From Eledone cirrhosa (Eukaryota), in the NCBI GenBank assembly GCA_964016885.1, contig OZ024760.1:34348001-34412000 (forward strand): a stretch of DNA of 64,000 bases, in the 5' to 3' direction. The notes under the pieces were generated by a model that did not search any database, had not been told where the DNA came from, and saw only the letters and a list, made by a program, of their open reading frames with translations. Positions 6,498 to 64,000 of the stretch are shown in pieces. The stretch's first letter is position 1. Each line of letters begins with the position of its first letter. The position numbers and the translations under genes are program-made.

Positions 6498-6722
6498 GCA
6501 CAGGCATTGCTTTATATCTGGAGATCTCTCTGCACTTGTCATCACATGGTACCATGGGCCCTGCACTATGTGTCAATAATGGTCACAGGTGTAGTCTTTG
6601 TACCAGAGTTTTCAAGTCGCTGGCTGGACTAAAAAGTCACATTCTTTCAGCGCATCGGTAGGGGTTCTCCTACATGGATATAAAGCAGTGGCCGTACTCG
6701 AAAACGAGTTGGCAGCCACCAT
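6498..6722 (+). mobile_element. 5'-truncated copy of the ~610-bp non-autonomous RTE derivative
   Basis: Matches 13159-13383. Encodes a C2H2 finger remnant [23 protein letters not shown]. Confidence 0.85.
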
Positions 6723-12022: not shown

Positions 12023-12266
12023 ATATGTATGTATATATGTATATGTATATGTATCTATATGTATAAATATATATATATGTATATATATATGTATATGTAT
12101 ATATATATGTATATGTATATATATGCATATGTATATGTATATATATGCATATGTATATGTATATTTATATGTATATGTATATATATATGTACGTGTGTGT
12201 GTGTGTGTATGTATATATATATATATATGTGTATGTATATATATGTGTATATATATATATGTATAT

Positions 12267-12365
12267 GCAGACAGAACCTGGGGGCAGCGATGGGGGACAG
12301 GGGATTCTGCAGCAAGAGAGTGAGATCCATCATCTCGACAGTAGTCGACGAGTGATGATGATGAT
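12267..12365 (+). mobile_element. ~100-bp RTE-type 3' end with (GAT)n tail, copy 1
   Basis: Encodes ..[21 protein letters not shown] followed by GATGATGAT. Near-identical to 16088 and 36823. Confidence 0.8.
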
Positions 12366-12662
12366 ATATGTGTATATATATATATATATGTATGTATATA
12401 TATATGATTATGTATATGGTTAATTATGCTGATGGTTAATTATGTATATGGTTAATTATGCTGGAAGAAATAGTATATATTTTAATATCTGATTGATTCT
12501 ATAGACGTGTTTTATGATATAATGCTCTGATTTTTTGATTTTAACTTATTAATTCTTCATTGAGCTTAAAAGTGAACAGTTGCAACACATATATGTATCC
12601 TTGATTTAATTTAATTTAATTCTATGTATGTGATAACCTCTATATATATATATGTATTTATG

Positions 12663-12773: not shown

Positions 12774-13383
12774 GTCAGGTCACCAGTTGGTGCTACTGGT
12801 AACATGTATCCCAGTACAACCTGTCCCATGGTCGGGTCGTTGGCGACTAAACTGGCAACCCCACCAAGGTTTCTTGGTGAGGAGGGTGACTTTGGACATC
12901 CTGCAGGACTAAAAACAAAACCTGTCAAAGGGCAAAGGAGCTCTTAAGAGTCAATGGCCATCCAAAATCACCGGGAGAGATGACCCCTTAGCCATTGTCA
13001 AGGCAGAATTCTAGGAGAAGGAAAACTCTGATATAACACCTGCAACCCTGATGGTATCCAATGATGTTGACTTGTTCTTCTTTTTGGTAAATATCATCTT
13101 GGTTAAGAGAGTGGGACTGGCTTTGTGCAGTGCCTTTGCTCACTATAAAAGCTTCACGGCACAGGCATTGCTTTATATCTGGAGATCTCTCTGCACTTGT
13201 CGTCACATGGTACCATGGGCCCAGCACTATGTGTCAGTAATTGTCACAAGTGTAGTGTTTGTACCAGAGTTTTCAAGTCGCTGGCTGGACTAAAAAGTCA
13301 CACTCGTTCAGCGCATCGGTAGGGGTTCTCCTACATGGATATAAAGTAGTGGCCGTACTCGAAAACGAGTTGGCAGCCACCAT
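12774..13383 (+). mobile_element. ~610-bp non-autonomous bipartite RTE-derived element, full copy
   Basis: Four copies in the window. The 5' part has CTAGGAGAAGGAAAACTCTGA, which resembles RTE 5'UTR motifs. The 3' part encodes a C2H2 finger ([23 protein letters not shown]) plus a CTCGAAAACGAG stem-loop. No RT. Confidence 0.82.
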
Positions 13384-16029: not shown

Positions 16030-16087
<58 letters not shown>

Positions 16088-16090
<3 letters not shown>

Positions 16091-16186
16091 GACAGGACCT
16101 GGGGGTAGCGATGGGGGACAGGGGATCCTGGGGCATGGGAGTGAGATCCATCGTCTCGACAGTAGTCGACGAGTGATGATGATGAT
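16088..16186 (+). mobile_element. ~100-bp RTE-type 3' end, copy 2
   Basis: GCAGACAGGACCTGGGGG...GTCGACGAGTGATGATGATGAT. Confidence 0.8.
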
Positions 16187-16364: not shown

Positions 16365-16370
16365 TTATAT

Positions 16371-16418
16371 ATGATGATTTCTAAAGAATGAAACAGTTCT
16401 AGTCCTGTAGAATCTCAT
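16371..16418 (+). ncRNA. Degenerate hammerhead relic (stem II collapsed, core G>A)
   Basis: GATTT-CTAAAGA-AT-GAAA-CAG ttctagtc CTG-TA-GAATC. Stems I and III pair. Confidence 0.45.
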
Positions 16419-16498
16419 CTATATTAAAACTTTTATACTCTGCTATGTATTGAGTACCTTACTTACTGTGGTTACCTCCGATTCAACCCGGAATAACG

Positions 16499-16531
<33 letters not shown>

Positions 16532-16841: not shown

Positions 16842-17449
16842 GTCAGGTCACCAGTTGGTGCTACTGGTAACATGTATCCCAGTACAACCTGTCTCATGGT
16901 CGGGTCGTTGGCGACTAAACTGGCAACCCCACCAAGGTTTCTTGGTGAGGAGGGTGACTTTGGACATCCTGCAGGACTAAAAACAAAACCTGTCAAAGGG
17001 CAAAGGAGCTCTTAAGAGTCAATGGCCATCCAAAATCACCGGGAGAGATGACCCCTTTAGCCTTAGTCAAGGCAGAATTCTAGGAGAAGGAAAACTCTGA
17101 TATAACACCTGCAACCCTGATGGTATCCAATGATGTTGACTTGTTCTTCTTTTTGGTAAATAGCATCTTGGTTAAGAGAGTGGGACTGGCTTTGTGCAGT
17201 GCCTTTGCTCACTATAAAAGCTTCATGGCACAGGCATTGCTTTATATCTGGAGATCTCTCTGCACTTGTCACATGGTACCATGGGCCCAGCACTATGTGT
17301 CAATAATTGTCACAAGTGTAGTGTTTGTACCAGAGTTTTCAAGTCGCTGGCTGGACTCAAAAGTCACACTCGTTCAGCGCATCGGTAGGGGTTCTCCTAC
17401 ATGGATATAAAGTAGTGGCCGTACTCGAAAACGAGTTGGCAGCCACCAT
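16842..17449 (+). mobile_element. ~610-bp non-autonomous RTE derivative, full copy
   Basis: Colinear and nearly identical to 12774-13383. Confidence 0.85.
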
Positions 17450-19402: not shown

Positions 19403-19569
19403 GTATGTATATATATATATATGTATATGTATATGCATGTATATATATATATTTATATATATATATATATGTATATATATATTTATGTATATATATATAT
19501 CTATGTATATATATATGTATTTATGTATATATATATATCTATGTATATATATATGTATATATGTATATG
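17450..19569. repeat. (TA)n array with TG, CA and TT interrupted sub-blocks
   Basis: Direct reading. CA-rich at ~18340-18670; TT-rich at ~18720-19500. Confidence 0.95.
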
Positions 19570-19919
19570 CATCATCATCATCATCATCATTTCATTTTAC
19601 GTCCGCTTTTTCCCTGCTTGCAAGGGTGGGACAGGAACTGATTCTGGCTTGATTTCTACAGCTGGATGCCCTTCCTAACACCAACCTCATTTACAGTGAG
19701 TGCTGGGTGCTTTTTGGCCGTGGCACCTCCACGACCACTTTGTAGTGGAATGATAGGGACCCCAGTCCTTATCATCTCATTTCTACAGCTGAGTAAACTG
19801 GAGCAATGTGAAATAAAGTGTCTTGCTCAAGGAAACAACACATCACCTGGTCTGAGAATTGAACTCACAACCTTTCGATTGCAAGGCCAATGCTCTAACC
19901 ACTAAGCCATGTGCCTCCA
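19570..19919 (-). mobile_element. tRNA-derived SINE head plus central domain joined to an RTE-type 3' module and (GAT)n tail
   Basis: Minus strand: TGGCTTAGTGG (A box), GAGTTCAATTC (B box), CCTTGAGCAAGACACTTTATTTCAC (CORE-like), then GGAAGGGCATCCAGCTGTAGAAA and tail CCCACCCTTGCAAGCAGGGAAAAAGCGGACGTAAAATG. Confidence 0.78.
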
Positions 19920-20346
19920 TTATATATGTATATGTGTATATATGTATATATGTATGTGTATATATGTATATATGTATATGTATGTGTGTATATGTACATA
20001 TATGTATATATGTATATGTATATATGTATATGTATATATGTATATGTATATATATGTATATATGTATATGTATATATATATGTATATATGTATATATATA
20101 TGTATATATATATGTATATATATATGTATATATATATATATGTATATATGTATATATATATGTATATATATATGTATATATATATATATATGTATATATA
20201 TGTTTATATGTATATATATATGTATGTATATATATATGTATGTATATATATGTACATGTGTATATATGTATATATATATATGTATGTATATATGTATATA
20301 TATATATATGTATATATATATGTATATATATATGTATATATATATG

Positions 20347-21056: not shown

Positions 21057-21640
21057 TCATCATCATCATCATCACCGTTTTACGTCCGTTCTTCCACGCT
21101 AGCATGGGTTAGACGGGTTGTCCTGTTGTGGGCAGTGTCTGGTCGGCTGACCATGCCTTGCTCATACAGGAACTGATCTGGCTTGATTTCTACAGCTGGA
21201 TGCCCTTCCTAACACCAACCTCATTTACAGTGAGTGCTGGGTGCTTTTTCGTGGCGCCTACACGTCCACTTTACAGTGTGGGCTGGGTGCTTTTTTGCCG
21301 TGGCACCTCCACGACCACCTTGCGGTGGGGGGGGGGGGGGCATATTGTTTATATGCTTCAGCATGTACCCATGGGAGGTCGGGTACCCTGTATTACTGCG
21401 TGACGCCAGAAGTCACGGTCGTGTGTCATTGACTTTGAGAGGTGTAGTTGGGTAAGGTCGGCTTTTATCACCTCATCCCAAGTCATCTTGGGTCTCCCCA
21501 CTCCGCGGTTTCCATCAACTTCTAGTGCTCTGCACCTTTTTATGCAGCTGTCATCCTTCATACGCATCACATGTCCATACCAGCGTAACCGCCTCTCCTG
21601 CACGCAGCATTTGATTCCTCTTATGCTCAGTCTCTCTCTC
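21057..21640 (-). mobile_element. 5'-truncated RTE LINE (ORF C-terminus, 3'UTR, (GAT)n tail)
   Basis: [43 protein letters not shown] is similar to 7899-8278. Confidence 0.88.
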
Positions 21641-21941
21641 ATGTATATGTATATATATATGTATATATGTATATATATATGTATATATATATATATGTAT
21701 ATATGTATATATATATGTATATATATATGTATATATATATGTATATGTATATATATGTTTATATGTATATATATATGTATGTATATATATATGTATGTAT
21801 ATATATGTACATGTGTATATATATATATGTATATATATACATATATATATATGTATATATATATATGTATATATATGTATATATATATATGTATATGTAT
21901 ATATATGTATATATATATATGTATATATATGTATATATATA

Positions 21942-23250: not shown

Positions 23251-25436
23251 ATGCAAATTCTGTCAAAAGGACTGAAATTCACACCGACTCCAACAGTCAA
23301 CCACCAAGAACTGAAGGAGGATATCCAAGAATTCTGTCGAAAATTACGTCTTGTAGAATTCTTCGCTGATAAAAATAATGAGAGTGATGAATCACTAGTA
23401 AAGAATAAATCAAATTTCACTCCGCCAAAAGGAAGAAATATCTATCTCGACCAATACATTGACATCCTGTCTAAATTTCCTCTTAGACATAATACTAATG
23501 TTAGGCCAAACATTAACAAATCAGAAATGTCTGCACTTAAACGTATACAAAATGATAAAACAATAATAATTAAACAAGCAGATAAAGGGGGTGCAGTTGT
23601 TATAATGGATACTGAATACTACAAGGATTTGGTTGAGGAACAACTGAAAGACACAACATTCTATCATGAAATACCGTCAAATATAGACCACAACATCATG
23701 AAGAAGATCAACAACCTGGCTTCAAAATCCACAACTCATTTACTGATAAGGAAAGAGACTACATCACCAATTTTGAGCCAAAACCCAGCAACCTGTATGG
23801 CCTACCGAAAGTTCACAAGTCAAAAGAAATACAACCGGCAGTAAGAGAACAAAACAGTGAGTACATTAAATTATTACACCCAAAAGACTTAAAACTTAGA
23901 CCTATTATAGCTGGTCCAACATGCCCCACTCACCGTCTAAGCAATTTTGTTGACATTATTTTGAAACCACTATGTATTCACATACCCAGTTTCATCCGGG
24001 ATGATATCGACTTCCTGTCCCATCTTCCCAAAACCACGGAAACGAATTCACTTCTACTCAGTTTTGATGTGGTAAGCCTTTACACCAACATTACACATGA
24101 TTTAGGAATAAAGGCGGTTAAATACTGGGTGGAAAAACATAGAGAAGTGATTCCCATTAGATTCACAGCGCCATTTATATTAGACGCAGTTAAACTTATT
24201 CTGGAAAACAACACTTTCTTCTTCAATGGAAAGAATTATATCCAAATTAGAGGCACAGCGATGGGAACGAAGTTTGCTCCCGTTTACGCGAACTCTGTAA
24301 TGGGATACTTAGAACAACAACTCTACCAAGAAATAGAGGAAAAATATAGTACTGACTTTAGAAAGTACATTGAAAAATCTTGGAAGAGATACCTTGACGA
24401 CTGTTTCATCATCTGGTCAGAATCTCTAGATACTCTGGATGAGTTCAATATCCTCCTGAATAACCTACACCCATCTCTCCAATTCACAAAAGAGATGAGT
24501 AGGACCAAATTACCATTCCTAGATATAATGATAATCAAAAACGACACCACCATTACTACGGATATATATTATAAACACACAGACACCCATCAATATCTGA
24601 ATTTTAAGTCGTGCCATCCACCTCATACAAAACGCAACATCCCATACTGCCTAGCCAGAAGAATTTGTACCATTGTAGAAGATACGAATACCAGGTACAA
24701 ACGCCTAACAGAACTAAGAGAATTTTTGCTCAAACAAAAATACCCATCTCTACTTATAGAAAATGGCATACAGCGGGCTATAAAAATACCTATACAACAA
24801 CTTAGAACAACCCAAGGAAGAAGAAACCAAGAACTGGTCATACCATTTATAATGACACACAACCCATGTCACCAGAATATCTTCAACACTGCCAAAGCAA
24901 ACCTACCGATCATTGCTCAAAGTAATGAATTAAAAGGCTTAATCACAGATCGATCTTTGACTCTTAGTAAAAGACAGCCAAAAAATTTGAAGCAATTGCT
25001 AACAAAAGCAAAGTTTGACCTTAACAACAAAGACCAATCATTCACTGTATCTAAATGCAATGATAATCGATGCGGTACATGTCAATCCATACACGCCGGT
25101 CAATATATGAAAACAAAAACTGGAAAAATATTGCCAAATGCAAATATGAACTGCAAAAGCAGAAATCTAATTTACTGCATTAAATGCCCGAATTGTGAAG
25201 AACTATATGTCGGTCAAACTGGAAATGCACTATCGGAACGTGCACGGGTACACCGTCAACAAATCAGAGACCCAAATGTCCGTCAGATACCCCTAAGCGG
25301 CCACCTGGCAACATGTGGTCAGGGAATATTTATAATATTCCCATTCTACAAATTACACAGCCCAAGTGAAATCAAGAGAAAAATCAAAGAAAAGAATTTT
25401 ATTGATAAATTCAAACCCAAGCTAAATGAACAATAA
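23251..25436 (+). pseudogene. PLE RT-GIY-YIG polyprotein, frameshift near 23730-23750
   Basis: ORFs 23251-23844 and 23961-25436 join through the alternative frame (..FTDKERDYITNF..LYGLPKVHK..LRPIIAG). Confidence 0.88.
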
Positions 25437-28202: not shown

Positions 28203-28216
28203 AACTGTTTATATTG

Positions 28217-28282
28217 TATTTTGTCTGATGAAGGCATAGCATATTGTTAATATGATATCCCCGAAATATATATAATGAAATA
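28217..28282 (+). ncRNA. Solo type I hammerhead in ~210-bp island (28203-28415)
   Basis: TATTTTGT-CTGATGA-AGGCATAGCATATT gtt AATATGATATCCCC-GAAA-TATATA-TA-ATGAAATA. 8-bp stem I; palindromic stem III. Confidence 0.72.
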
Positions 28283-28415
28283 AATATGGTTTTATAAATA
28301 TAGTTTTCCATTTATTTAATATTGTAAATATACTCCAAATATTAGTCGTGCTTTTATATCAGTTATAAATATTTACTAGTTGTAACCCAACAATTTTAAA
28401 TATAACTTTCCATAT

Positions 28416-28512
28416 ATTTATATATATATATTTATATATATATATATGTTTATATATGTATATGTATATACATGTATATATATATATTTATATATATATA
28501 TATATTTATATG

Positions 28513-28779: not shown

Positions 28780-29356
28780 GTATGCGTATATGTATATATA
28801 TGTGTATATATATATATGTATATGTATATATATGTGTATATATATATATGTATATGTATGTGTATATATGTGTATATGTATGTATGCGTATATGTATATG
28901 TATGTATATGTGTATATATATATATGTATATGTATGTGTATATATGTGTATATGTATGTATATGTATGTGTATATATGTGTATATGTATGTATATGTATA
29001 TGTATGTATGTGTATATATATGTATATGTATATATATATATGTATATATATATATATGTATATGTGTATATATATGTATATGTGTATATATATGTATACG
29101 TGTATATGTATATATATATGTATATGTATGTATATGTATGTATATATGTATATATATATGTATATGTGTATATGTGTATGTGTATATGTATATGTATGTA
29201 TATGTATATATATATATGTATATATATGTATATGTATATATATATATGTATATATATGTATATGTATATGTATATATATATATGTATATGCATATATATA
29301 TATGTATATGTATGTATATATATATATATGTATATATATATACATATATATATATA
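28416..29356. repeat. TG-interrupted (TA)n array
   Basis: Direct reading. Confidence 0.95.
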
Positions 29357-29556
29357 CGGCGGTGGATTGGCAGTATCGGTAGAAGATCGGACACTATGCT
29401 TTGACGTATAGAGTTACGACCCTTGCCATTCTGAGTTCAAATCCAGTCGAGGTTAACTTTGCCTTTCATCCTTACGGGGTCGATAAAATAAAGTACCAGT
29501 AATGTCCTGGGATAATTGCTGCCCTTGTGCCAAAAGTAGAAACAATTATTATCATT
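29357..29556 (+). mobile_element. tRNA-derived SINE
   Basis: TGGCAGTATCGG (A-box-like), GAGTTCAAATCC (B box), central GCCTTTCATCCTTACGGGGTCGATAAAATAAAGTACCAGT (recalled as a conserved SINE central domain), (ATT)n tail. Confidence 0.75.
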
Positions 29557-29558
29557 TT

Positions 29559-29623
29559 AAAGGGCTGTGCCCCAGCATGGCCTCAGCCAGATGGCTGAAA
29601 CAGGTAAAAGAGTAAAAGAGTAT
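29559..29623 (+). mobile_element. 65-bp 3' terminus of the CR1-group LINE family at 3312
   Basis: Matches the reverse complement of 3312-3376 with two substitutions, including the GTAAAAGA tail. Confidence 0.85.
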
Positions 29624-29628
29624 AAGAG

Positions 29629-29777
29629 ATATGTATATATATATATATGTATATGTATATACGTATATATATATATATGTATGTATATATATATATGTAT
29701 ATATGTGTATGTATATATGTGTATGTATGTATATGTATATATGTATATATATGTGTATATATATGTATATGTATGTG

Positions 29778-30930: not shown

Positions 30931-33492
30931 ATCATCATCATCATCATCATCAGCGTTTAACGTCCGTGTTCCACGCTTGCATGGGTTTGGACGGGGGTAG
31001 TCCCACTTGAGGCAAGAGTGATTGTCTTGCTCGCATAGGACTGTCTGGCAGGTTTTCTACAGTTGGATGCCCTTCCTAACACCAACCACATTTACAGTGT
31101 GGGTCTGGGAGGTTTTTACCGTGTTGCCTACACGGCCACATTACAGCGTGGACTGTGTGTTTTTTTGTCGTGACACCTACACGATCTCATTTGTTTCGGC
31201 CTCGATGGCGCGGCAACAACATAACTTTACATAGAACGGGGTGGTGTGGATGGGGTGGGGGTGGTGGTGGTGGGACGGGGTGTATTTTGTTAGAGATGCC
31301 TACTGGCTGGAGTAGGTTTTACTATATATTTAGGTAAGGCGGGTCTTCTCTGTTACGGAGTACCGCCAAAGGTCTCGGTCCAGTGACATTGTCTTGGAGA
31401 GGTGTAAGTGTGTGATGTCGGAGTTTATCAGCTCGTCCCAGGTTTTTCTAGGTCTGCCTATTCCGTGACTACCGTCTATCTTTATTGCCCTGCACTATGT
31501 TATACAGCTATCGACTTTCATGCGCATCACGTGTCCATACCAACGTAGCCTTCTCTCGAGTAAACAACATCTGATCCCTCTTATCTCTAATTTTTTCCTT
31601 AGTTCGTTTATGCTTTGCCGTTCACGTATATTACTGTTACACATCCAGCGGAGCATGCAAGCTTCGTTCCTCTCTAGTCTGCGTATATCCTCTGCACACA
31701 ATGCCCAGGTCTCACTGCCATGCAGCATTGCTGTTCGTATGCAGGCATCGTACAACCTGCCTTTCATTTTTAGTGAGAACCCTTTAGCAGCTAATAGTGG
31801 TATAAGCTCTCTGAACTTTTTCCAACCAGTTCTGACTCTAGCTACAGTACTTTCAGAGCACCCTCCCCCACTGCTGATTTTATCGCCCAGGTAACGGAAG
31901 CTGTCCACTATTTCTATAGAACCCTCTGCGCAATTGAAAGAGCTAGTATTTTGTGGGCACTTGCTGCTACTTATTGCACCAGAGCACCGGCCACATGTAA
32001 AATCTATGTTCTTAGTTAGCTTACCTGTGATCCCACTACATCTTTTATGCACCCATACTTTGCATTTAGGACATAAAATGGAGTTTCTACCTACGCATTT
32101 CCTACACACCGAGCACGACCATTTCCCAGAAGGGACCGCCACCTTGTTTTCTTTCCTACAAACTAGTACTTTGGTCTTAGCCAGGTTAATTTTAAGTCCT
32201 TTTGACTCTAGGCCGTGCTTCCATGTTTGGAATTTCTTCTCTAGCTCGGCCATTGATTCCGCTATGAGTGTCAGGTCGTCTGCGTATAGGAGTTCCCATG
32301 GGCAGCCTGTCTTGAACTCCTCTGTTATAGCCTGAAGGGCAATAATAAATAGTAGTGGGCTGAGAACAGAGCCCTGATGGACGCCAACTTTTACGCTAAA
32401 CTCTTCACTATATTCGTTGTTAATTCTAACCTTGCTGACTGTTTCTTTATACATGGCTTGTATAGCCCTCACAAGCCATTCGTCAACACCTAGTTTTCTA
32501 AGAGCCCACCAGATAATGGAGCGGGGGACTCTGTCGAAGGCTTTCTCCAAGTCGACAAAAGCTAAGTAGAGGGGTTTACCTTTAGCTAGGTACTTCTCCT
32601 GTAGTTGTCGTACTATGAAAAGAGCGTCTGTGGTACTTTTGCCTGACACAAACCCGAACTGCATTTCATCTAGGTCAATTCTCTCTCTGATTAGTTGCGC
32701 TATTACTTTTTCCGTGACCTTCATGACCTGGTCGATTAATTTAATGCCTCTATAGTTACTCCTATCTAGGGCGTCTCCTTTACCCTTATAACAGTTAACG
32801 ATGATGCTGCTATGCCAGTCCTTCGGAACAACCCCATTCTGTACGACTTGGTTAACTATGCGGGTGACCATGGTGTGTCCCACCGTGCCAGATGCCTTCA
32901 GCATCTCAGCAACTATTTCCGAAGGCCCAGCCGCCTTACCCGTCTTCATATCCTTGATTGCCTTACTTATTATACTCCCCTCGACTAACACTGCTGGTCC
33001 CTCTATTGGGTCGATATGGGGGAGACTGTCTTTCTCCCATTTATTCTCCTCATTTAGTAGCCTTTCATAGTGACACTTCCAAGCTACCTTCTTATCAGCG
33101 TCGGTGATGGCAAGTGTGCCATCGTCGTTTAGTACACACTTCTCCCCGACAATATCACGGTTTTCCTTGACGCATTGCCTAGCAATCCTGAACACCTCAC
33201 GTTTTTGGTCATCGCGTTGTAGAACATGCTTGAACTTTCTTTCCTCAGCTTCCCTTCTTGCTAAGTACACTTGTCTCCTAGCTTCCCTCCTGGCCACTTG
33301 ATAGTCCTCTCTACTTCCCCCATCCCGCCATACTTTCCAAGCCTGCTTTTTGGCCTTAATTGACCCCTCCACCTTACTGTTCCACCACCATGTTACTCTC
33401 CTCCTGCCTACAGGCCTGCTCCAGCCACAGACTCCGTCTGTCGCCAACAGCAGGTTTGCTTTCAGAAATTCCCACTCTCCCTCTATATTGTC
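30931..33492 (-). mobile_element. 5'-truncated RTE LINE, same family as 7899-12022
   Basis: Open frame ~33490-31495 with full RT (LYADD) and a PHD-like finger. Premature stop at CIT*. Same 3'UTR and (GAT)n tail. Confidence 0.94.
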
Positions 33493-34444: not shown

Positions 34445-34516
34445 TATATGTATATATATATGTATATATATATATATGTATTATATGTATGTATTATATA
34501 TATATATGTATATATA
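33493..34516. repeat. TG-interrupted (TA)n array
   Basis: Direct reading. Confidence 0.95.
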
Positions 34517-34583
34517 AAAGGGTCCCACCCTTGCAAGCAGGGAAAAGCGGACGTAAAATGATGATGATGATGATGATGATGAT
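34517..34583 (+). mobile_element. ~65-bp RTE-type 3' tail
   Basis: GTCCCACCCTTGCAAGCAGGGAAAAGCGGACGTAAAATGATGATG. Same tail as 19570 and similar to 61964. Confidence 0.8.
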
Positions 34584-35469
34584 ATCTATATATATATGTA
34601 TATTTATATATGTATTATATGTATGTATTATATATATATATGTATATGTATATATATGTATATATATATATGTATATGTTTATGTATATATATGTATATG
34701 TATGTATATATATATGTATATGTATATATATATGTATATATATATGTATATGTATATATATATGTATGTATATATATGTATATATATATGTATATATATA
34801 TATGTATATATATATATGTATATATATATGTATGTATATGTATGTATATGTATATATATATATGTATATATATATATGTATATATGTATATATATGTATG
34901 TATATATATGTATTTATGTGTATATATATATATGTATGTGTATGTATATATGTATATGTGTATATGTATGTATATATATGTGTGTATATATATATGTATA
35001 TATATATATATATATATATGTATACATATATATATATACATATATATATATACATATATATATATACATATATTCATATATATATACATATATTCATATA
35101 CATATACATATGTATACATATATACATATATATATACATATATATATATATATACATATATGTGCATATATATATATATGTATATATGTGTATATGTATA
35201 TATATGCTTATATGTATATGTATGTATATATGTATATGTATATGTATGTGTATATGTGTATATGTATGTGTATATGTGTATATGTATGTGTATATGTATA
35301 TATGTATATGTATGTATATGTATATATGTATATGTATGTATATGTATATATGTATGTATATGTATATGTATATATGTATATATGTATGTATATATGTATA
35401 TATATATGTATATGTATATCTATGTGTATATATATATATATATATGTGTATATATATATGTATATATAT

Positions 35470-36018
35470 GAGTCAGGTTGTACTGGTAACATGTATCCCA
35501 GTACAACCTGACTCATGGTCGGGTCGTTGGTGACTAAACTGGCAACCCCACCAAGGTTTCTTGGTGAGGAGGGTGACTTTGGACATCCTGCAGGAATAAA
35601 AACAAAACCTGTCAAAACGGCAAAGGAGCTCTTAAGAGTCAATGGCCATCCAAAATCACCGGGAGAGATGACCCCTTAGCCATTGTCAAGGCAGAATTCT
35701 AGGAGAAGGAAAACTCCGATACAACACCTGCAACCCTGATGGTATCCAATGATGTTGACTTGTTCTTCTTTTTGGTAAATATCATTTTGTTTAAGAGAGT
35801 GTGACTGGCTTTGTGCAGTGCCTTTGCTCACTATAAAAGCTTCACAGCACAGGCATTGCTTTATATCTGGAGATCTCTCTGCACTTGTAGTGTTTGTACT
35901 AGAGTTTTCAAGTCGCTGGCTGGACTGAAAAGTCACACTCATTCAGCGCATCGGTAGGAGTTCTCCTACATGGATATAAAGTAGTGGCCGTACTCGAAAA
36001 TGAGTTGGCAGCCACCAT
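35470..36018 (+). mobile_element. ~610-bp RTE derivative with variant 5' hairpin and ~50-bp internal deletion
   Basis: Colinear with 12774-13383. Deletion after CACTTGT (~35887) at a TGT microhomology. Confidence 0.85.
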
Positions 36019-36466: not shown

Positions 36467-36787
36467 ATGTATATATATATGTATATATATATGTATATGT
36501 ATATATATATGTATATATATGTATATATGTATATATATATATATATGTATATATATGTATATATATGTATATGTATATATATGTATATGTATATATATGT
36601 ATATGTATATATATGTATATATATGTATATGTATGTATATGTATATATATGTATATGTATATATATGTATATGTATGTATATGTATATGTATGTATATGT
36701 ATATATATGTATATGTATATATATGCATATGTATATGTATATATATATGTATATGTACGTGTATGTGTGTGTGTGTGTATATATATA

Positions 36788-36822
<35 letters not shown>

Positions 36823-36919
36823 GCAGACAGGACCTGGGGGCAGCGATGGGGGACGGGATTCTGCAGCAATAGAGTGAGATCCATCATCTCGACAGTTGTC
36901 GACGAGTGATGATGATGAT
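36823..36919 (+). mobile_element. ~100-bp RTE-type 3' end, copy 3
   Basis: Same start (ATGCAGACAG) and tail as 12267 and 16088. Confidence 0.8.
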
Positions 36920-36988
36920 ATATGTATATATATATATGTATATATATATATGTATATATATATACATATATATATATATACATACATG

Positions 36989-37137
36989 ATTATTTCTGAA
37001 GACGGCGTATATATGAGTTAGGTATGTATATTTAATCTTGATAATTTGTATAATTTTGTATAATCTTGTACATAGATCTGTTAAATATGCATACCAATTA
37101 TAGCACATATATGCCCTAGAAACGATCGTTAAATAGT
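36989..37137 (+). ncRNA. Solo type I hammerhead with ~115-nt stem II
   Basis: ATTATTT-CTGAAGA(36996-37002)-GGCGTATAT..GGTATGTATATTTAA..TTAAATATGCATACC..ATATATGCC-GAAA(37119-37122)-CGATCG-TT-AAATAGT. Confidence 0.78.
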
Positions 37138-37192
37138 GAACCTTTTTTTGTTTAATATAAGGAATTGTTTGTTCATTATTTGTTTAATATTT

Positions 37193-40116
<2,924 letters not shown>

Positions 40117-44359: not shown

Positions 44360-45476
<1,117 letters not shown>

Positions 45477-48375
45477 GTACAATAAAGCAATGCAGATATC
45501 GGATAAGAAGCACTCTACAGTTTGTAGGACTGGAGTATACATAATATATAAGATCAAAAGATGGTTAAAGGAGTTCCATGTATTTTATTATGCGCATTTC
45601 AAAAACAAACATCATCATGCAATAATATTTGTGTTTTCATCAGATAAAACAGGAGGACATGATGTGTGATATTAGGAAACATATTTTATTTAGAGAGGGG
45701 GGGTGGAAAGGATGAAAAAAAGGGGGGGGGATGAGGGTGAAGGCGGAGAGGGAGAGATGGGTGATAGAGAGAGAGAGATAGTTTTTATAACTGAGAAAGA
45801 TATATTGTTTTACATAGAGAGGTTGAAAACCGTTGGAAGATAATGTATAAATTAAAAGAATTTGAAAATTAACGAAGGGAAAAATATGTACGAAGAAGGA
45901 GAGGGAGTTAATATGTATTGAGATTAAAAAGTTTGATGATAGAGAGAATAGAATAATGAATTGCGGATGAATATTCTAACGTCAAAAAAATGTGTGTATG
46001 TTTACAAGTATTATGGAAATTTGAAAATCAACGAAGAGAAAAAATTATTAAGGTTTGTGTATTGAAGGATTTGAGAAAAATAATATGAAGTTAAGGTTTG
46101 TATATTGAAGGAATTGATAATATGTGCGAAGAAAGAGTTAATATGTATTAAGAATGAGTTAGATGATGGGGAGAAAAAAATGAATTAAGGATGAATAATC
46201 AAGCGTCAAAACAAATGTATATGTTACGAAGGATTTTACAAGGTGAAAATAGAGTAAGGGTAATGAGTAAACAAGTATTATAGAGTGTATAATACCCTTT
46301 GAAATAAGGTAGGAAGATGGGTATATTTTAAAAGAGGTGTATGTATATGTGCCTTTGAGAAAAGATTCTAAATTGATAAAGAATTGAATATTAGCTGTAT
46401 ACTTTGTGAAATGTCTTATGGAATTTATGCAAGCAGATAGAAAACAAATCTGTTCGTCTATTTATTATAGAATCTAGATTAGAGATAATGGTAAATTTTT
46501 CATTTAGGCAGAGATTGCAGATTTTAGATAGAGAGCTGTTCAAGTATGAAGACGCAGAAGAAACCTTCTTCCAAAAGATGGTATATTTAATGTTTTTGTC
46601 TTTCAAGGACCATATGAGTTCTGAGAGAGCCGTGTTGGTTCTTTTAAGTTTGTATTTAAAAGAGGTGGAAGTGGAGCCAAAATAGGTGAAGGAATTGGTG
46701 TTAGTTATAACTTTACATTCATAAATTAAGTTTTTATCAAGGCAATGGTTGTTGAGAGGACATTTATTTTTAATAGGGCAATTGTAATTGCAATTAGAGA
46801 GATTATTAATGAGTGACCTAGTGTTATCTATAGAAGGAATTGGATTGGAGAAGTTGTTTGCGATAGGAATAATAGTTTCTTGATTTAGAGTTGGATTATG
46901 AACATTTAGCGAAGTTGTGTTTGACGTTGTATTTGGGTTTACAGAAATTAGCCTAGGGTTTACAATGACGTCGGGAGTACTATTACTGTTATTATGAAAT
47001 TCAGTGTTGGAAGGAAGAGATTTAGTATTTAGTATTTTATTGTTGTGTTTAGAGATAATGTTGGAAATATTGGAGGATGTAGAATAAGAAAATTTGATGG
47101 TGTGTTTGTTAAATATTTTACTATAGATATGTGAGGTAGGGAAGCATTTATTTAAGGCACTAAAGAATAATTTAGGAATATTGTTATTAATAGAGATGGA
47201 GAAAGGAGCATTATACCAGATTATGTTTTTGTATCTAGGTCTTTTATTAAAGTTATTGGAATGATCATGATTAATTATTCTACTGTAAGTTCTTCTAGAA
47301 TTTGTTTCTTTACTATATTTGATTTTATCAGGATAGCCGGCTTTAGAAAGTGCGTTATTATAGTAATTGGCGTTAGCATCAAAGATGTTTTTATTAGAAG
47401 ATATGTTAGATATTCTTTTTCCAATACTACTAACTATAGCATTCTTGATATTAGTAGGATGGTTAGATTTAAAGTTAACATAATTTAGGTTCTCATTGTT
47501 TTTATGGTAAGGGTAATATAGGCCAGTGTCAAGATTAAGAGATACATCCAAGAAATTAGCTAGTTTGATACTGTTATCAAATTCAATTTTTAGCTTATGT
47601 TGGTTAAAGAGATTACGTATATTGTTCTTAATAATATTAAGGTTAACTATATTGCAATTTAAGATAGTAAAGAGTCCATCGTCACGATAAATTCCACCGC
47701 GAAGTTGAGGAATTTTCCGACTCAAAGAGTTCAAAATAAAGATACCAATTAAATCAGTCAATTGGGATGAATCGGATGCTCCCATTGTGATGTCGAAGTT
47801 GTTAGAGGTATCGGCTCTGGTCCAATATTCGTTGTTGAACTCTAAGGATGGTTTTACGTGCGGTGAGGATGATGTGAAGTTCATCTGTGGTGATGTCAGA
47901 ATATTTAAGTGCGAAAGATAGAGCATTATTGAGTAGTGAAGGCGAAATGGAGGAATAGTAGCTGGCAATATCAAATTGAATAAATTTTAGTTTGTTTTTA
48001 TTATCCAATTTGTTGAACCAGCCAATCACTTCAGAAGTACCAAACCATAAATTTAGGTTCAAAGAAGAGCAATTAGAACGAACCTGTGGGATAATTCTAC
48101 CCAAGATGGCTTTACTAACAACCCCCAGATCAGATTTAGAGGGGGCGATTAATCTAACAGGTAGTTCAGTGCGAAAATTGTTTTTGTGAACCTTGAGATT
48201 TATCCTCGGAGTTCTTGGGAGGAATGGTTCGGTCTTTTTTTCAATGCCAAGTTTTGACATAATCTCAGAGGCTTCAAGGTTTATGTATTCTAAATTTTCA
48301 CGGTTGGTTTTACGATATTTTTTCCTAAGTTCCTTTAGGATAAGGTTGTTATAATTATCCTTGGAAATATGTTAT
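45477..48375 (-). mobile_element. Penelope-like element, 5'-truncated, frameshifted
   Basis: LKVHK..PVRLIAP, FIQFDIASYYSSI, TMGAS, GIYRDDG, FLDV, IIWYNAPFS, CPLNNHCLDKNLIYEC..TYFGST, CNLCLNEK. Long 3' region with hammerhead. Confidence 0.92.
45583..45649 (-). ncRNA. Type I hammerhead in PLE 3' region
   Basis: Minus strand: TTTTAT-CTGATGA-AAACACAAATATTATTGC ATGATGATGTTTGTTTTT-GAAA-TGCGCA-TA-ATAAAA. Palindromic stem III. Confidence 0.8.
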
Positions 48376-50943: not shown

Positions 50944-53900
50944 AAATGTTTGTAGTGTCTTGACCGGTGGACAGATTATTGTGTTGTTACTCCAAATGTT
51001 TGTAGTGTCTTGACCGGTGGACAGATTATTGTGTTGTTACTCCAAATGTTTGTAGTGTCTTGACCGGTGGACAGATTATTGTGTTGTTACTCCAAATGTT
51101 TGTAGTGTCTTGACCGGTGGACAGATTATTGTGTTACTGCAAATGTTTGTAGTGTCTGGACCAGTGGACAGATTATTGTGTTACTCCAAATGTTTGTAGT
51201 GTCTTGACCGGTGGACAGATTATTGTGTTACTGCAAATGTTTGTAGTGTCTGGACCAGTGGACAGATTATTGTGTTACTCCAAATGTTTGTAGTGTCTTG
51301 ACCAGTGGACAGATTATTGTGTTACTGCAAATGTTTGTAGTGTGTTGACCGGTTGACAGATTATTGTTACTCCAAATGTTTGTAGTGTCTTGACCAGTGG
51401 ACAGATTATTGTTACTCCAAATGTTTGTAGTATCTTGACCAGTGGACAGATTATTGTTACTCCAAATGTTTGTAGTGTCTTGACCAGTGGACAGATTATT
51501 GTGTTACTCCAAATGTTTGTAGTGTCTTGACCGGTGGACAGATAATTGTTACTCCAAATGTTTGTAGTGTCTTGATCGGTGGACAGATTATTGTTACTCC
51601 AAATGTTTGTAGTGTGTTGACCGGTGGACAGATTATTGTTACTCCAAATGTTTGTAGTGGCTTGACCAGTGGACAGATTATTGTGTTACTCCAAATGTTT
51701 GTAGTGTCTTGACCAGTGGACAGATTATTGTTAGTCCAAATGTTTGTAGTGTCTTGACCGGTGGACAGATTATTGTGTTACTACAAATGTTTGTAGTGTC
51801 TTGATCAGTGGACAGATTATTGTTACTCCAAATGTTTGTAGTGTCTTGACCAGTGGACAGATTGTGTTAATCCAAATGTTTGTAGTGTGTTGACCGGTGG
51901 ACAGATTATTGTGTTACTCCAAATGTTTGTAGTGTCTTGACCAGTGGACAGATTATTGTTTTACTCCAAATGTTTGTAGTGTGTTGACCGGTGGACAGAT
52001 TATTGTGTTACTCCAAATGTTTGTAGTGTCTTGACCGGTGGACAGATTATTGTGTTACTCCAAATGTTTGTATTGTGTTGACCGGTGGACAGATTATTGT
52101 TACTGCAAATGTTTGTAGTGTCTTGACCGGTGGACAGATTATTGTTACTCCAAATGTTTGTAGTGTCTTGACCGGTGGAGAGATTATTGTTACTCCAAAT
52201 GTTTGTAGTGTCTTGACCAGTGGACAGATTATTGTTACTCCAAATGTTTGTAGTGTCTTGACCGGTGGACAGATTATTGGGTTACTCCAAATGTTTGTAG
52301 TGTCTTGACCAGTGGACAGATTATTGTTACTCCAAATGTTTGTAGTGTCTTGACCAGTGGACAGATTATTGTTACTCCAAATGTTTGTAGTGCCTTGACC
52401 AGTGGACAGATTGTGTTACTCCAAATGTTTGTAGTGTGTTGACCGGTGGACAGATTATTGTGTTACTTCAAATGTTTGTAGTGTCTTGACTGGTGGACAG
52501 ATTATTGTTACTCCAAATGCTTGTAGTGTTGACCGGTGGACAGATTATCGTTACTCCAAATGTTTGTAGTGTGTTGACCGGTGGACAGATTATTATGTTA
52601 CTCCAAATGTTTGTAGTGTGTTGACCGGTGGACAGATTATTGTTACTCCAAATGTTTGTAGTGTCTTGACTGGTGTCAAGATTATTGTTACTCCAAATGT
52701 TTGTAGTGTCTTGACCGGTGGACAGATTATTGTGTTACTCCAAATGTTTGTATTGTGTTGACCGGTGGACAGATTATTGTTACTGCAAATGTTTGTAGTG
52801 TCTTGACCGGTGGACAGATTATTGTGTTACTCCAAATGTTTGTAGTGTCTTGACCGGTGGAGAGATTATTGTTACTCCAAATGTTTGTAGTGTCTTGACC
52901 AGTGGACAGATTATTGTTACTCCAAATGTTTGTAGTGTCTTGACCGGTGGACAGATTATTGTGTTACTCCAAATGTTTGTAGTGTCTTGACCAGTGGACA
53001 GATTATTGTGTTACTCCAAATGTTTGTAGTGTCTTGACCGGTGGACAGATTATTGTTACTGCAAATGTTTGTAGTGTCTTGACCAGTGGACAGATTATTG
53101 TTACTCCAAATGTTTGTAGTGTCTTGACCGGTGGACAGATTATTGTGTTACTCCAAATGTTTGTAGTGTCTTGACCGGTGGACAGATTATTGTTACTGCA
53201 AATGTTTGTAGTGTCTTGACCAGTGGACAGATTATTGTTACTCCAAATGTTTGTAGTGTCTTGATCGGTGGATAGATTATTCTGTTAATCCAAATGTTTT
53301 TAGTGTCTTGACTGGTGGACAGATTATTGTTACTCCAAATGTTTGTAGTGTTGACGGGTGGACAGATTATTGTTACTCCAAATGTTTGTAGTGTCTTGAC
53401 CAGTGGACAGATTGTGTTACTCCAAATGTTTGTAGTGTGTTGACCGGTGGACAGATTATTGTTACTCCAAATGTTTGTAGTGTGTTGACTGGTGGACAGA
53501 TTATTGTGTTACTCCAAATGTTTGCAGTGTCTTAACCAGTGGACAGATTATTGTTACTCCAAATGTTTGTAGTCTCTTGACCGATGGACAGATTATTGTT
53601 ACTGCAAATGTTTGTAGTGTCTTGACCAGTGGACAGATTATTGTTACTCCAAATGCTTGTGTCTTGACCAGTGGACAGATTATTCTGTTAATCCAAATGT
53701 TTGTAGTGTCTTGACTGGTGGACAGATTATTGTTACTCCAAATGTTTGTAGTGTCTTGACCATTGGACATATTATTGTTACTTCAAATGTTTGTAGTGTC
53801 TTGACCGGTGGACAGATTATTGTGTTGTTACTCCAAATGTTTGTAGTGTCTTGACCATTGGACAGATTATTGTGTTACTCTAAATGTTTGTAGCGTCTTG

Positions 53901-53965
53901 ACCGGTGGACAGATTTTTGTGTTATTCGAAATGCTTGTAGTGTCTTGACCGGTGGAGAGATTGTG
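50944..53965 (+). repeat. Tandem satellite, ~65 units of 45/47/50 bp
   Basis: Unit AAATGTTTGTAGTGTCTTGACC(G/A)GTGGACAGATTATT(GT)(GTT)GTTACTCC, head-to-tail with no spacers. Confidence 0.97.
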
Positions 53966-55035: not shown

Positions 55036-55903
55036 CAGAGTGCGGACGATATTTGTTCGCAATTTTCAACTGCTAATTTTATGCAAATTGTTTTTACTTC
55101 CGCTGTCACTCTTGTCTTCATAAAAACAGTGACTATATTTCCATTATTTATTTTCAGAATAATTGATTATGAATAATTTTGAACCTCCAAATTTGTGGAA
55201 GAGACACGGAGTTCTTCTTGGAATCAGCGCCGGGAGGACAAATAATACCAGAAGATCAACTCCCAGAACAACAGGTGGCTCGCTGTCTCATCCAAAGACG
55301 TGCCCAGAGTCATGCAGACAAAGTTTCCAATGACAACATTGGTCTTAGGTGCCGTCAGCAGTCAAGGTGACGTCCTGCCACCTCACTTCTTCCCTGAGAG
55401 CCTCAAGCTGAACACCGATGGCTACATCCGCATTCTGAGCGAGGTAGTAAAGCCCTGGATCGACCAGGTAGCTGCAGGTAGGCTGTACATGTGGCAGCAA
55501 GACTCAGCGCCCTGCCATACCAGCTGAAAGACCCAAGCCTGGCTGTCAGAGAACATCGTCGACCACACCTGACATCTGGCCTCCCAGCTCGCCTGACTGC
55601 AACCCTCTCGACTTCTTTGTGTGGGGCACAGTGGAATGAGACACCAACAGATCTAACTGCAATACGAAAGACGATCTGAAGGCCAGGATCACAAGTGTTG
55701 GGGGACAGTGACGAAGGCTTGTAGCTGGTTCCAAGGCCGACTTGAGACCGTCATCAAAGCCAATGGCGGGTTTATCGAATGAGATCGAAAGAACAAGTCG
55801 TGAAGACAAACTGACCCAAGTTTGATAAATATATCTTAAAAAATAAAACTACTGTCTTATATTTTCCTAGACAGTAATCTTGCGAACAAATATCGTCCGC
55901 ACC

Positions 55904-55906
<3 letters not shown>
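55036..55906 (+). mobile_element. Internally deleted Tc1/mariner (maT/DD37D-like) DNA transposon
   Basis: 27-bp TIRs CAGAGTGCGGACGATATTTGTTCGCAA / TTGCGAACAAATATCGTCCGCACCCTG (1 mismatch) in TA runs. Transposase relic WQQDSAPCH..TQAWL..SPDCNPLDFFVWG. Confidence 0.9.
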
Positions 55907-55951
<45 letters not shown>

Positions 55952-60230: not shown

Positions 60231-61963
60231 GGAAGAAGTAGAAGAAGAATATATTTTCACCACTGAACCAGATAACTGCTTTGTTTTAAACCAAACTGGA
60301 CAATTGTTCTAATGACCACTTCAGTTTACTGAATAATAGGTACATTGTATTTAAGTTGATAGAAACAGCACTATACTCCATTGAGAATAACAGCTAGAAT
60401 GAAGCAGTTCTCTTTCTAACTTTGCTGGAGTTAAGGTTAAAACATAAATAACAGCTAAAGTGTCACATTATAGTAGCTTGGAAAACACCAACACCTTTTG
60501 AACGATTTCTACCAGAACATATGATCAATATTTGCAAGGAGCCAATTGTGTAGGCAATAGTTAACAATACCTGTAGGATTTTAAAATTCAACATAGAAAG
60601 AAAGCAGGAGGCATTAAAAGCTATTCAGTGGAGTGCTTTACAAATGGTTAACTCTCTCATTATAATATTCCTAATGAAAGATACTGTCTGTGGCATTCAA
60701 ATAAATATAAACACTTTAACCCTTTCATTACCATATTTCTATGACACTACCTATGTCATTAACCCTTTCATTACCATATGTTTAATGAAAGACAGTCTAT
60801 GATTTTCACATACTTTTGAAAATAATCAAGAATTTGGAAGGATTTAGTAATATAACTAATTTTTTCATTATTAAGCGGTTGTTTGGAGCATAACTTAACA
60901 CAGGTTCTTACATAATATCATGAGGAAAATTTTTTAGATAGATATAATTACTCTCCCTATCATTAAAACACTCAGAAACTGCCTGAGATGCAGCATTATA
61001 AGAGGCCAGCTAAACTTACATAGAGGTGAGCTGAGACTGAACTGCGACCCCCTATCATTAAAACATCTTGGAAATCTCCTATAAAATACAACCTCATAGG
61101 AGGCCAGCTAAACTTACTATATATACTCATATATAAGCTGAGAAATGTGTGACAGAAAATCAATGGCCAGCTTATATTCAAAGTCAATATTCCATGTAAA
61201 TAAGATGCTAAAATATTTTTGCTTTGGAAGTGAATATTACACCAGTTACACTTTGGAGGGGAAATTTGTTTTTCCTGTTGTTGTTTTTTATGTATTTTGA
61301 AAAAATTTGGCCTTCAAAATGGTCAGAAAATCATTATGTAAAAGAATTGTGAAACATTAACTATACTCTAACTGGTACTTAAAACATTTTGAATATCAAA
61401 ATATTAGAACTTCGTAAATATATTCTCCTCTCATAAGAATTTCAAAACTGTATTGTCTAAATATAATGTGTTGATTAGCTGCCCCGGCTTATAAATGAGG
61501 TTTGGATATTTGCCTGTTTCTCAGACATAAAATAGGGACTGGGCTTATATTTGATTATATACTGTACATATGTCTGAGCTGTAACAACATGATATCCACA
61601 CACACACACACACACACACGCACACACACACATATATATATATATGTGATAGAACTGGGGCCTCTATCATTAAAAGACACCAGAAATCTTCTTTGAGATG
61701 CAAGCTTGTAACAGGCCAGTTAAACTAAATTAAATCTGAGCTCTAACAACAACAAATTCATATGAACATACCCCTCCCCCCCATTCCCAAATCATATATA
61801 TGTGTGTATAAATCTATGTATGTGTGTGTGTATGTATATATATATATATATATATATATCCAGAATCAGACAGATCCACACAATGATCGCGTCTCGAGCT
61901 GTCTGCCGGCGAAACAATTGTAACACACAATAAATTGAGTTCAGATGCATTTTTTGTTATATA

Positions 61964-64000
61964 TCATCATCATCATCATCATTTTACATCCGCTCTTCCC
62001 TGCTTGCAAAGGTGGGACGGGTCTTATTCAGCACAGCATCTCTCCACTTGTCACGGTCCTTCGTCATCTCCACCGTGAGCTTCAGCGATCTGAGGTCTGT
62101 TCTCACCACCTGCGCCCATGTTTTTCGTGGTCTACCTCTACCACGTCTTCCTTCAACTGGCATTTCCTGGCACTTCTTCACCCATCGGTCATCCTCCATG
62201 TGCATCACATGTCCATACCACCTCAGCCTCCTCTCTCGCACACTACATTCTATCCCTCTCAGACAGTTTCTCTCTCAACACATTCATGCTGGGTCGTTCA
62301 CGCACATTGACATTGCACATCCAACGGAGCATGCTTGCCTCATTTCTCTCCAGCCGTCGCATATCCTCTGCAGTTGCTGCCCATGTCTCACTACCATGCA
62401 GCATCGCGCTCCTCACACAGGCATCATATAACCGGCCTTTCGTACGGAGGGAGAAACTCTTCTTCGTCAGCAGAGGAAGCAGCTCCCTAAACTTCTTCCA
62501 ACCCGTCGTTATTCTAGATACTATAGCCTCGGAACACCCCCTCCCATGCTAATCTGATCTCCTAGGTACCGGAAGCTATCCACCACTTCTATAGCACCCG
62601 CCTGTATTTGAAAAATGTGTCTATCAATGCGACTTCTACTGTCTAATTTCCCTGTACATTTACTGCATATGTATTTCTCCCTACCTGTTAGTTTGCCTGC
62701 TATCCCGCTACATCTCTTGTGTACCCAGGATCTGCATTGTGTGCATTTTATAGAATTTATGCCAGTTCCTTTTCTGCATATCGAACATGGCCATTTCCCT
62801 GACGGAATCAGAGTTTTGTCCTCTTTTCTACTCATCAACACTTTCGTCTTAGCTAGGTTCACTCTCAGTCCTCTTGCTTCGAACTGCTGTCTCCATAGCC
62901 AGAATTTATTCTCTAGCCCCTCTACTGATTCTGCTATAAGAATCAGATCGTCAGCTTGGAGGACTATAATGAACAAGAGCGGGCTGAGGACCGAACCTTG
63001 ATGTACTCCTACTTGTATCTGGAATTCCTCACTAAACTCCATTTCTACGCTGACTTTACTGACAGTACTTCTGTACAAAGTTTGCACTGTCCTTACCAGC
63101 CATTCCTCAACACCTGGTTTCCTTAGGGACCACCAGATGACAGATCGGGGTACCCTATCAAAGGCTAAGTATAGTGGCATATTTTTCTCTAAGAACCTCT
63201 CTTCTAATTGTCTCACCAAGAAGAGGGCATCTGTTGTACTTTTCCCAGGCACAAAACCAAACTGCATCTCATCTAGTTTGACCCTTTCTCTAATTAGTGC
63301 TAATATCCTTTCTGCCACTTTCATCAGTTTTATACCCCTATAATTACTCCTCTCCAGAGCATCCCCTTTACCTTTGTAGCAATTTATGAGAATACTGCTG
63401 CACCAGTCTTTGGGCATGGCACCACCATATATAGCCTGATTGATGATGCGTGCAACCAGTTTAGTGCCTACGTCCCCTGATGCCTTCAGCATCTCAGCAA
63501 CTATCCCCGATGGTCCAGCAGCCTTACCATTTTTCATTTCCTTAATCGCCTCTTGGACCCTATATTCTCTCTCCCATTCATTCGCCACATTCATCAGTCT
63601 CTCATAATGACATTTCCAGGCCTCCTTTTTCTGATCATTCATGACACTAAGTACACCGGCATCATTCCGGACACATTTATCTCCAACAACATGCTGATTT
63701 GCATTGACACACTGCCTTGCAATGTGGAACACCGCACGCCTCTGATCTTCCCGTCGCAGAACATTAGCAAACCTCCTACTCTCAGCCTCCCTGCGTGCTA
63801 AGTACACCTGACGTCTAACTTCTCTCTTAGCGGTTGTATATCCTTCCCTACTTCCACCCTTTTTCCAAGCCTTCCATGCTAGTCTTTTGTCTCTAATGGC
63901 CTTATCTACTGTGCTGTTCCACCACCAGGTCACTATCTGTCTGGTTGGAGCTCTGCTCCAGCCACAAGTTTCATCAGTAGCCTGCAGTAAGTTGTCATGT
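61964..64000 (-). mobile_element. RTE LINE, divergent subfamily, decayed, continues beyond window
   Basis: ORF 62521-63933 ([28 protein letters not shown]-like finger) and ORF 61984-62241 ending directly at the (GAT)n tail. Several small in-frame deletions. Confidence 0.92.

Follow-up and report, generated by a model that had tools for sequence, protein, structure and literature searches.

The window analysed here, a stretch of 64,000 nucleotides from Eledone cirrhosa, is a transposon nest in which alternating TA/TG array makes up one third of the sequence. From 1 to 50 kb almost all inserts, whatever their type, have array on both flanks, and this two-sided arrangement is seen for LINEs, SINE-like elements, Penelope-like elements (one of them, at 23670-25433, with RT plus GIY-YIG) and small fragments. 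The arrays are strongly polarised: in 29 of 30 the plus strand is the one that carries the G (2242 G against 184 C), independently of the direction of the neighbouring element, with patches of C-type array at about 35090-35150 and 36954-37410. This polarity could come from one ancestral array or from a strand-biased mutation process, and the simplest reading would be a single polarised array that has been split again and again by insertions. In such an array, the mere capping of an array by a tail, or the presence of three copies on the same strand, weighs little.

The nest holds a variety of other residents. An RTE fragment on the minus strand (21057-21643) is flanked by a ~190-bp block with rare variants, at 20084-20270 and 21644-21830, and several hundred bases of extra array separate the tail of the fragment from the block; this could possibly be a very long target-site duplication (TSD) with a transduced 3' array. 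Short Penelope-type fragments resembling hammerhead ribozymes lie at 36986-37195, 16370-16503, 28209-28417 and 45454-45689, and the one at 36986 contains a long hairpin insert and has a 32-bp duplicated array word on either side. Two SINE-like elements headed by tRNA sequence, with Pol III box pairs, end in the tails of LINEs found elsewhere in the window: for the one at 19567-19924 this tail is that of the RTE at 61963, and for the one at 29356-29631 it is that of the LINE at 3314. An RTE-like ORF (31498-33480) has a match to a PHD finger after its RT domain, below the Pfam cut-off. We also observed a 794-bp inverted repeat with 98.7% identity (249-1041 / 1540-2333), an element with short terminal inverted repeats sitting in TA arrays (55037-55907) and about 66 tandem copies of a ~45-bp unit, arranged with a higher-order period of 137 bp (50944-53962).

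Our main subject is a ~100-bp core for which a BLAST search of the window with positions 12266-12368 returned exactly three copies, each of full length and on the plus strand: copy 1 at 12267..12365, copy 2 at 16088..16186 and copy 3 at 36823..36919. Every copy count given below for this tail covers the window alone. The first-pass annotation had claimed that three plus-strand tails share their exact first base, and this is borne out, as all three open with GCAGACAG directly after ATAT (at 12267, 16088 and 36823). Copy 1 contains the last ~29 codons of an RTE-type ORF, with its stop at 12353-12355, a stem-loop at ~12329-12359 and (GAT)4; copies 2 and 3 also end in (GAT)4, and copy 3 has a 2-bp deletion. 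Identity is 94.8% between copies 1 and 3, 91.7% between copies 1 and 2, and 88.5% between copies 2 and 3. The three lie within 25 kb on one strand, and among the small inserts of the nest (roughly ten of at most 250 bp) the core alone is present in three copies. Exact patterns taken from the core had no matches in metagenome, viral and prokaryote contigs, a result that does not imply absence.

The reading frame of the core comprises 30 residues followed by a stop. Protein searches with the core in this frame, and in another open frame, produced no match. A profile built from copies 1 and 2 and searched against 1.84 billion proteins gave four hits, two of them real C-terminal matches (P0004 and P0006), which led to 10 relatives. 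Four of these 10 are single ORFs of 1025-1051 aa with endonuclease and RT domains (Pfam), and the C-termini of these four align with the core; the single ORF with AP endonuclease plus RT is thus seen in the relatives only, not in the parent itself. There is no longer copy of the core's LINE inside the window, and as the LINEs that it does contain reach no more than about 24-37% identity with four of the relatives, the parent of the core is absent from it. DNA for the relatives was supplied by two metagenome loci (L001 and L002), in which the TCGAC/GTCGA hairpin is found again and the stop is immediately followed by GAT repeats. In all three copies of the core (GAT)4 overlaps the stop, leaving a very short simple-repeat 3' UTR, as in RTE elements, and the 5-bp terminal stem is intact. 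The stem is unchanged in all five sequences when L001 and L002 are included, with no compensatory change, which is consistent with, and not proof of, a recognition structure. The hairpin is located in coding sequence. From its sequence, we identify the core as the 3' end of an RTE-type LINE, i.e. the last ~29 codons plus the tail. The RTE clade label is one that we assign from architecture and from C-terminal motifs presumed to be typical of the clade, not from an RT phylogeny. The architecture of the core agrees with the definition of RTE in the available portion of PMC2887409.

Substitutions within the core order the three copies. Copies 1 and 3 have in common a TGG-to-TGC change, and the Trp affected is retained by copy 2 and present in all 12 homologous C-termini listed. 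Since copies 1 and 3 both lost this Trp, their shared source was likely already non-coding; the branch of copy 2 predates the change. Copy 2 has six private substitutions, every one of them amino-acid changing, which would read as neutral decay in what is presumably an older copy. An RNA stage might have left traces of RNA editing, but the A-to-G changes among the six private ones of copy 2 number three, which is too few to count.

Upstream of the core, copies 1 and 3 share far more than a first base. The TA/TG array before copy 1 (12100..12266, plus strand) carries a GC interruption, which is duplicated, followed by TACGT plus a GT run, and it is homologous over ~125-170 bp to the array before copy 3 (36700..36822, plus strand), with a 47-bp exact match that includes a rare variant joining 12100 and 36700. 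Read outward from the junction, both arrays present the same barcode, namely a long AT run, a GT run, TACGT, 12-6 spacings and TGC, the last of which is duplicated in copy 1. The ordered motif TGCAT..TACGT..(GT)4 occurs at two places in the 64 kb, those of copies 1 and 3 only. In three comparisons, of 300, 231 and 210 array-end pairs, the pair formed by copies 1 and 3 takes first place each time once composition is corrected for, but by raw score it ranks only 41st (of 300), 52nd (of 231) and 16th (of 210). Sliding array windows score at least as high as this pair in 0.05% to 1.7% of cases (tail probabilities 0.0005-0.017), and an estimate based on motif rates gives 0.001. The individual markers proposed at first fared less well than their order: ATGTGTATAT is commonplace, with 114 hits, and GTACGTGT also occurs at 40037, where there is no tail. 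Copy 2 lacks the barcode and is preceded by pure (AT)n of ~56 bp only (16032..16087, plus strand). The common barcode and the common Trp change together mean that array and tail were inherited together, and we take copies 1 and 3, on their shared variants, to be descendants of one array-plus-tail block. Co-copying of a microsatellite with a LINE tail is therefore real and statistically supported, in two copies, with a third that is compatible.

The downstream side differs from the upstream side. The array following copy 1 is short (12366..12406, plus strand) and its counterpart at copy 3 aligns no better than background, since 9-97% of null windows score as high. The downstream arrays of copies 2 and 3 are, over their first 30 bp, more alike than 99% of null windows. 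The non-array flanks of the three copies share no homology. The unrelatedness of the downstream flanks, as first proposed, accordingly holds for all the non-array flanks and for the arrays of copies 1 and 3, and it does not hold for the first 30 bp after copies 2 and 3. To the right of copy 1, at 12445-12560, an overlay of four read runs revealed an AT-rich repeat of very high copy number, some other copies of which run into TA array near 12520; over the core itself the overlay had no depth. A larger segmental duplication, which the first-pass annotation named as the outcome that would count against a mobile unit, does not fit flanks that are unshared on both sides and a homology of copies 1 and 3 that is one-sided. 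TA/TG arrays are hard to assemble, and arrays constitute a third of the window, so some concern about assembly is natural; nevertheless, the copies differ by 5-12% in a tree-like pattern and each has its own non-array neighbours to left and right, and we regard segmental duplication or an assembly artefact as highly improbable.

A candidate extension of the unit on this side was rejected. An end in ATGAT past the downstream array was seen at all three copies and at one of 27 other array ends; at copy 3, it marks the border of another insert, which is hammerhead-like and has a 32-bp duplication of its own, and at copy 1 the motif belongs to a flank duplication. Hammerhead-like motifs beside copies 2 and 3 differ between the copies and have no Rfam support, and were set aside as independent inserts.

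The end of the core is as uniform as its beginning. The tail reads (GAT)4 and then ATATGT in all three copies, so that the predicted variation in (GAT)n length was not observed in this small sample. The window contains six further GAT tails, of 5-8 units each, and related sequences of the same lineage also carry short GAT tails, which softens the force of a constant (GAT)4. A search for a TSD with a rare variant around the three copies found none, short TSDs being invisible in arrays; duplicated array words of 32 and 43 bp flank two other inserts. No Pol III box pair was found in or beside the three copies, and pairs are present in two of three SINE-like controls; around copy 3, Rfam gave no match at gathering level. 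The core copies hence lack the small-RNA head with Pol III A and B boxes that defines a SINE. They also lack the LINE 5' end joined to a 3' end that defines a bipartite RTE, as only array lies upstream and the non-array sequence beyond it differs.

A 65-bp tail at 34517 had been cited as a further array cap in support of the unit. This tail (34518..34583, plus strand, (GAT)8) has no similarity to the three core copies and is ~95% identical to the SINE-like element at 19570-19632 and to the LINE end at 61963-62018; it belongs to a different family and falls outside the unit. With a 43-bp duplicated array word at 34471/34605, it has the appearance of a normal truncated insertion that duplicated its target.

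How was the block copied? The reading we prefer, to which we give about an even chance, is that the proteins of an active RTE re-inserted a read-through RNA made up of array and tail, with a variable 5' cut hidden in the array. As a first step, an ordinary 5'-truncated insertion into a TA/TG array would have set the junction. Read-through transcription from a neighbouring element or a host gene would then have crossed the array, yielding an RNA that starts with array and finishes with the RTE stem-loop and (GAT)4. Finally, RTE reverse transcriptase would have put this array-plus-tail RNA into other arrays. Later truncations would fall at variable, invisible points within the array, leaving the LINE-derived part constant in its first base. 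Copy 2 would represent an older event, cut inside the proximal (AT)n, and copies 1 and 3 would derive from a later source and retain its barcode. An upstream-only homology between copies 1 and 3 that ends at the tail is what is expected if the template ends at the tail. We favour RNA because the piece that multiplied is the recognition end of a LINE with an intact stem, the other small inserts being single. In the accessible text of PMC9115989, an Octopus RTE transcript has a ~600-nt 3' UTR that is mostly microsatellite, indicating that RTE RNAs can contain long arrays. Against an RNA route stand the lack of a TSD at copies 1-3, the lack of Pol III boxes, the constant (GAT)4 ATATGT, the local clustering and the number of copies, three only; the 30-bp likeness downstream of copies 2 and 3 also hints that copying ran past the tail.

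Most of these same observations suit copying at the DNA level, by which breaks in the fragile AT arrays would be repaired from a nearby array through gene conversion or template switching, with the tail as a passive passenger and reverse transcription playing no part. Arrays on both sides offer the homology, and the same strand, equal tail length, local clustering, absence of TSD or promoter and above-chance match of the first 30 bp downstream of copies 2 and 3 all agree with it. Local duplication of array is also seen in the window, where ~190 bp at 20084-20270 recur at 21644-21830, although this may itself be an insertion scar. What argues against DNA-level copying is that none of the remaining small inserts has been duplicated along with array, that in a comparison of 27 arrays the two longest rare-variant words in common, copies 1 and 3 excluded, each flank one insert, and that the homology of copies 1 and 3 ends at the tail. 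On balance, we consider this route possible though rather unlikely.

A candidate for the source of read-through transcription is a ~600-bp non-coding repeat present on the plus strand in four copies (6499-6720, 12776-13381, 16844-17447 and 35471-36016), which ends in an (ATGT)-type array. It alternates with the three cores, each of which has one copy upstream on the same strand; in the case of copy 3, ~800 bp of array lie between the repeat at 35471..36016 and the core. Co-descent with the cores found no support, as the copies of the repeat before copies 1 and 3 share no derived change, and the arrays between repeat and barcode differ between the two. The repeat has no Rfam hit and resembles a bipartite non-autonomous RTE.

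A further explanation concerns the constant first base itself. The first-pass annotation reasoned that independent 5' truncations must differ in length, and this premise is weakened, since L002 has Gly-Ile-Cys at the junction and the parent may thus supply TA/TG-like microhomology of its own, and since other truncated copies in the window are broken at words of this kind. Ordinary RTE insertions into TA arrays might time and again have their 5' end fixed where the ORF first offers a TA/TG-like word, ~100 bp before the LINE end, in which case copy 2 would be independent and copies 1 and 3 would result from one later duplication. At the junction L002 reads G-I-C-K-L-D-L and the window ATA TGC AGA CAG (I-C-R-Q), and the parent may contain ATATG. 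The longest array-like word in the core is of 3 bases, whereas each kb of LINE ORF holds 9-12 such words of at least 5 bases; in the RTE at 33489, which is truncated, the break falls in a TATAATATAG word of its longer sister copy. For L1, truncated 5' junctions are known to show microhomology, according to the available part of PMC10760644, and copy 2 did split off before the Trp change of copies 1 and 3. However, the Ile codon of the parent is only putative, and any alternating array would encode Ile or Val in this frame; two other truncated copies have just 1-2 bases of microhomology; a second independent event at the same base has, by our own rough estimate, a chance of a few percent; and the barcode is left unexplained. 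We judge such a hotspot with one duplication improbable and, again by our own estimate, common descent of all three copies to be likelier than an independent copy 2.

Taken as a proposal, then, a mobile unit of TA/TG body plus RTE tail stands in so far as the block was copied at least once (copies 1 and 3) and ends in an RTE-type 3' end with an intact stem-loop; spread via RNA, a genome-wide family and the spreading of microsatellites on any scale are conjectures that go further. As a broader and more doubtful suggestion, there could be a genome-wide family of promoterless retroposons with a TA/TG microsatellite body and the 100-bp RTE recognition tail as sole conserved part, which would be transcribed by read-through, would insert in register into arrays via base-pairing at both ends and would help to build the kilobase TA/TG arrays that occupy a third of the window.

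The comparisons with known systems that follow are drawn from the portions of the cited papers available to us. The three copies behave like 3'-partial RTEs re-mobilised with flanking sequence (PMC2887409, PMC10760644, PMC3812793). In the RTE 3'-end microsatellite families of Lepidoptera (Tay et al. 2010, PMC2887409), the repeat is a short 3' tail between TSDs; here, in contrast, the microsatellite is 5' of the LINE piece, exceeds 100 bp, is unrelated to (GAT)n and has no TSD that we could see. The CR1-L3 and Rex LINEs of squamates likewise raise microsatellite content through LINE activity (PMC6050309), but seeding there proceeds from 3' tails, whereas the candidate here carries a 5' array. 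RTE tails have been proposed to pair with their targets (PMC6007223). L1 3' and orphan transductions (PMC10760644, PMC3812793) show that read-through RNA moves flanks and that truncation can remove the driver; the difference is that the RNA proposed here is of RTE type and would end in the recognition tail of a second LINE and not at a poly(A) site. A 2013 review presents the mobilisation of microsatellites by transduction as conceivable but unreported (PMC10760644/PMC3812793).

Bipartite non-autonomous RTEs and RTE-tailed SINEs (Kojima 2018, PMC5786205) are, like our copies, non-coding with a retained RTE 3' end, yet our copies are without LINE 5' part, small-RNA head and Pol III boxes and have microsatellite only upstream. 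Waldo, Mino, Kibi, Koshi, Dong and Micron (PMC3812793) and MuTAnT (PMC4486113) reside inside pre-existing simple repeats, as do the copies described here. Elements that target microsatellites insert into the repeat without carrying any (PMC3812793), and targeting alone cannot yield a shared upstream barcode. Among titles and abstract openings, with Repbase, Dfam and subscription papers outside the scope, none describes an RTE-tail element with a 5' microsatellite body, and nothing comparable is described in the available parts of PMC13282606, PMC4758252 and bioRxiv 10.64898/2026.07.22.740005. Six short motifs were absent from the paper text searched, and the part of the supplements of PMC9115989 that was covered gave no hits.

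Another composite family offers a partial parallel, as SVA has a (CCCTCT)n head, and LINE machinery thus carries simple repeat of variable length at its 5' side, as proposed here; it differs in that L1 moves it, as a poly(A)-tailed composite of 2 kb, where our copies consist of ~100 bp of LINE tail plus array. That LINE tails seed short microsatellites is already known. If the copies described here arose through local DNA copying instead, they are merely an example of array instability. The rare interruptions of an array serve as a lineage barcode. If the reading that we prefer is true, an array carried before the tail would let LINE enzymes export ready-made arrays to new sites, which could help to explain genomes much of whose sequence is TA/TG array and the tendency of their markers to amplify many loci.
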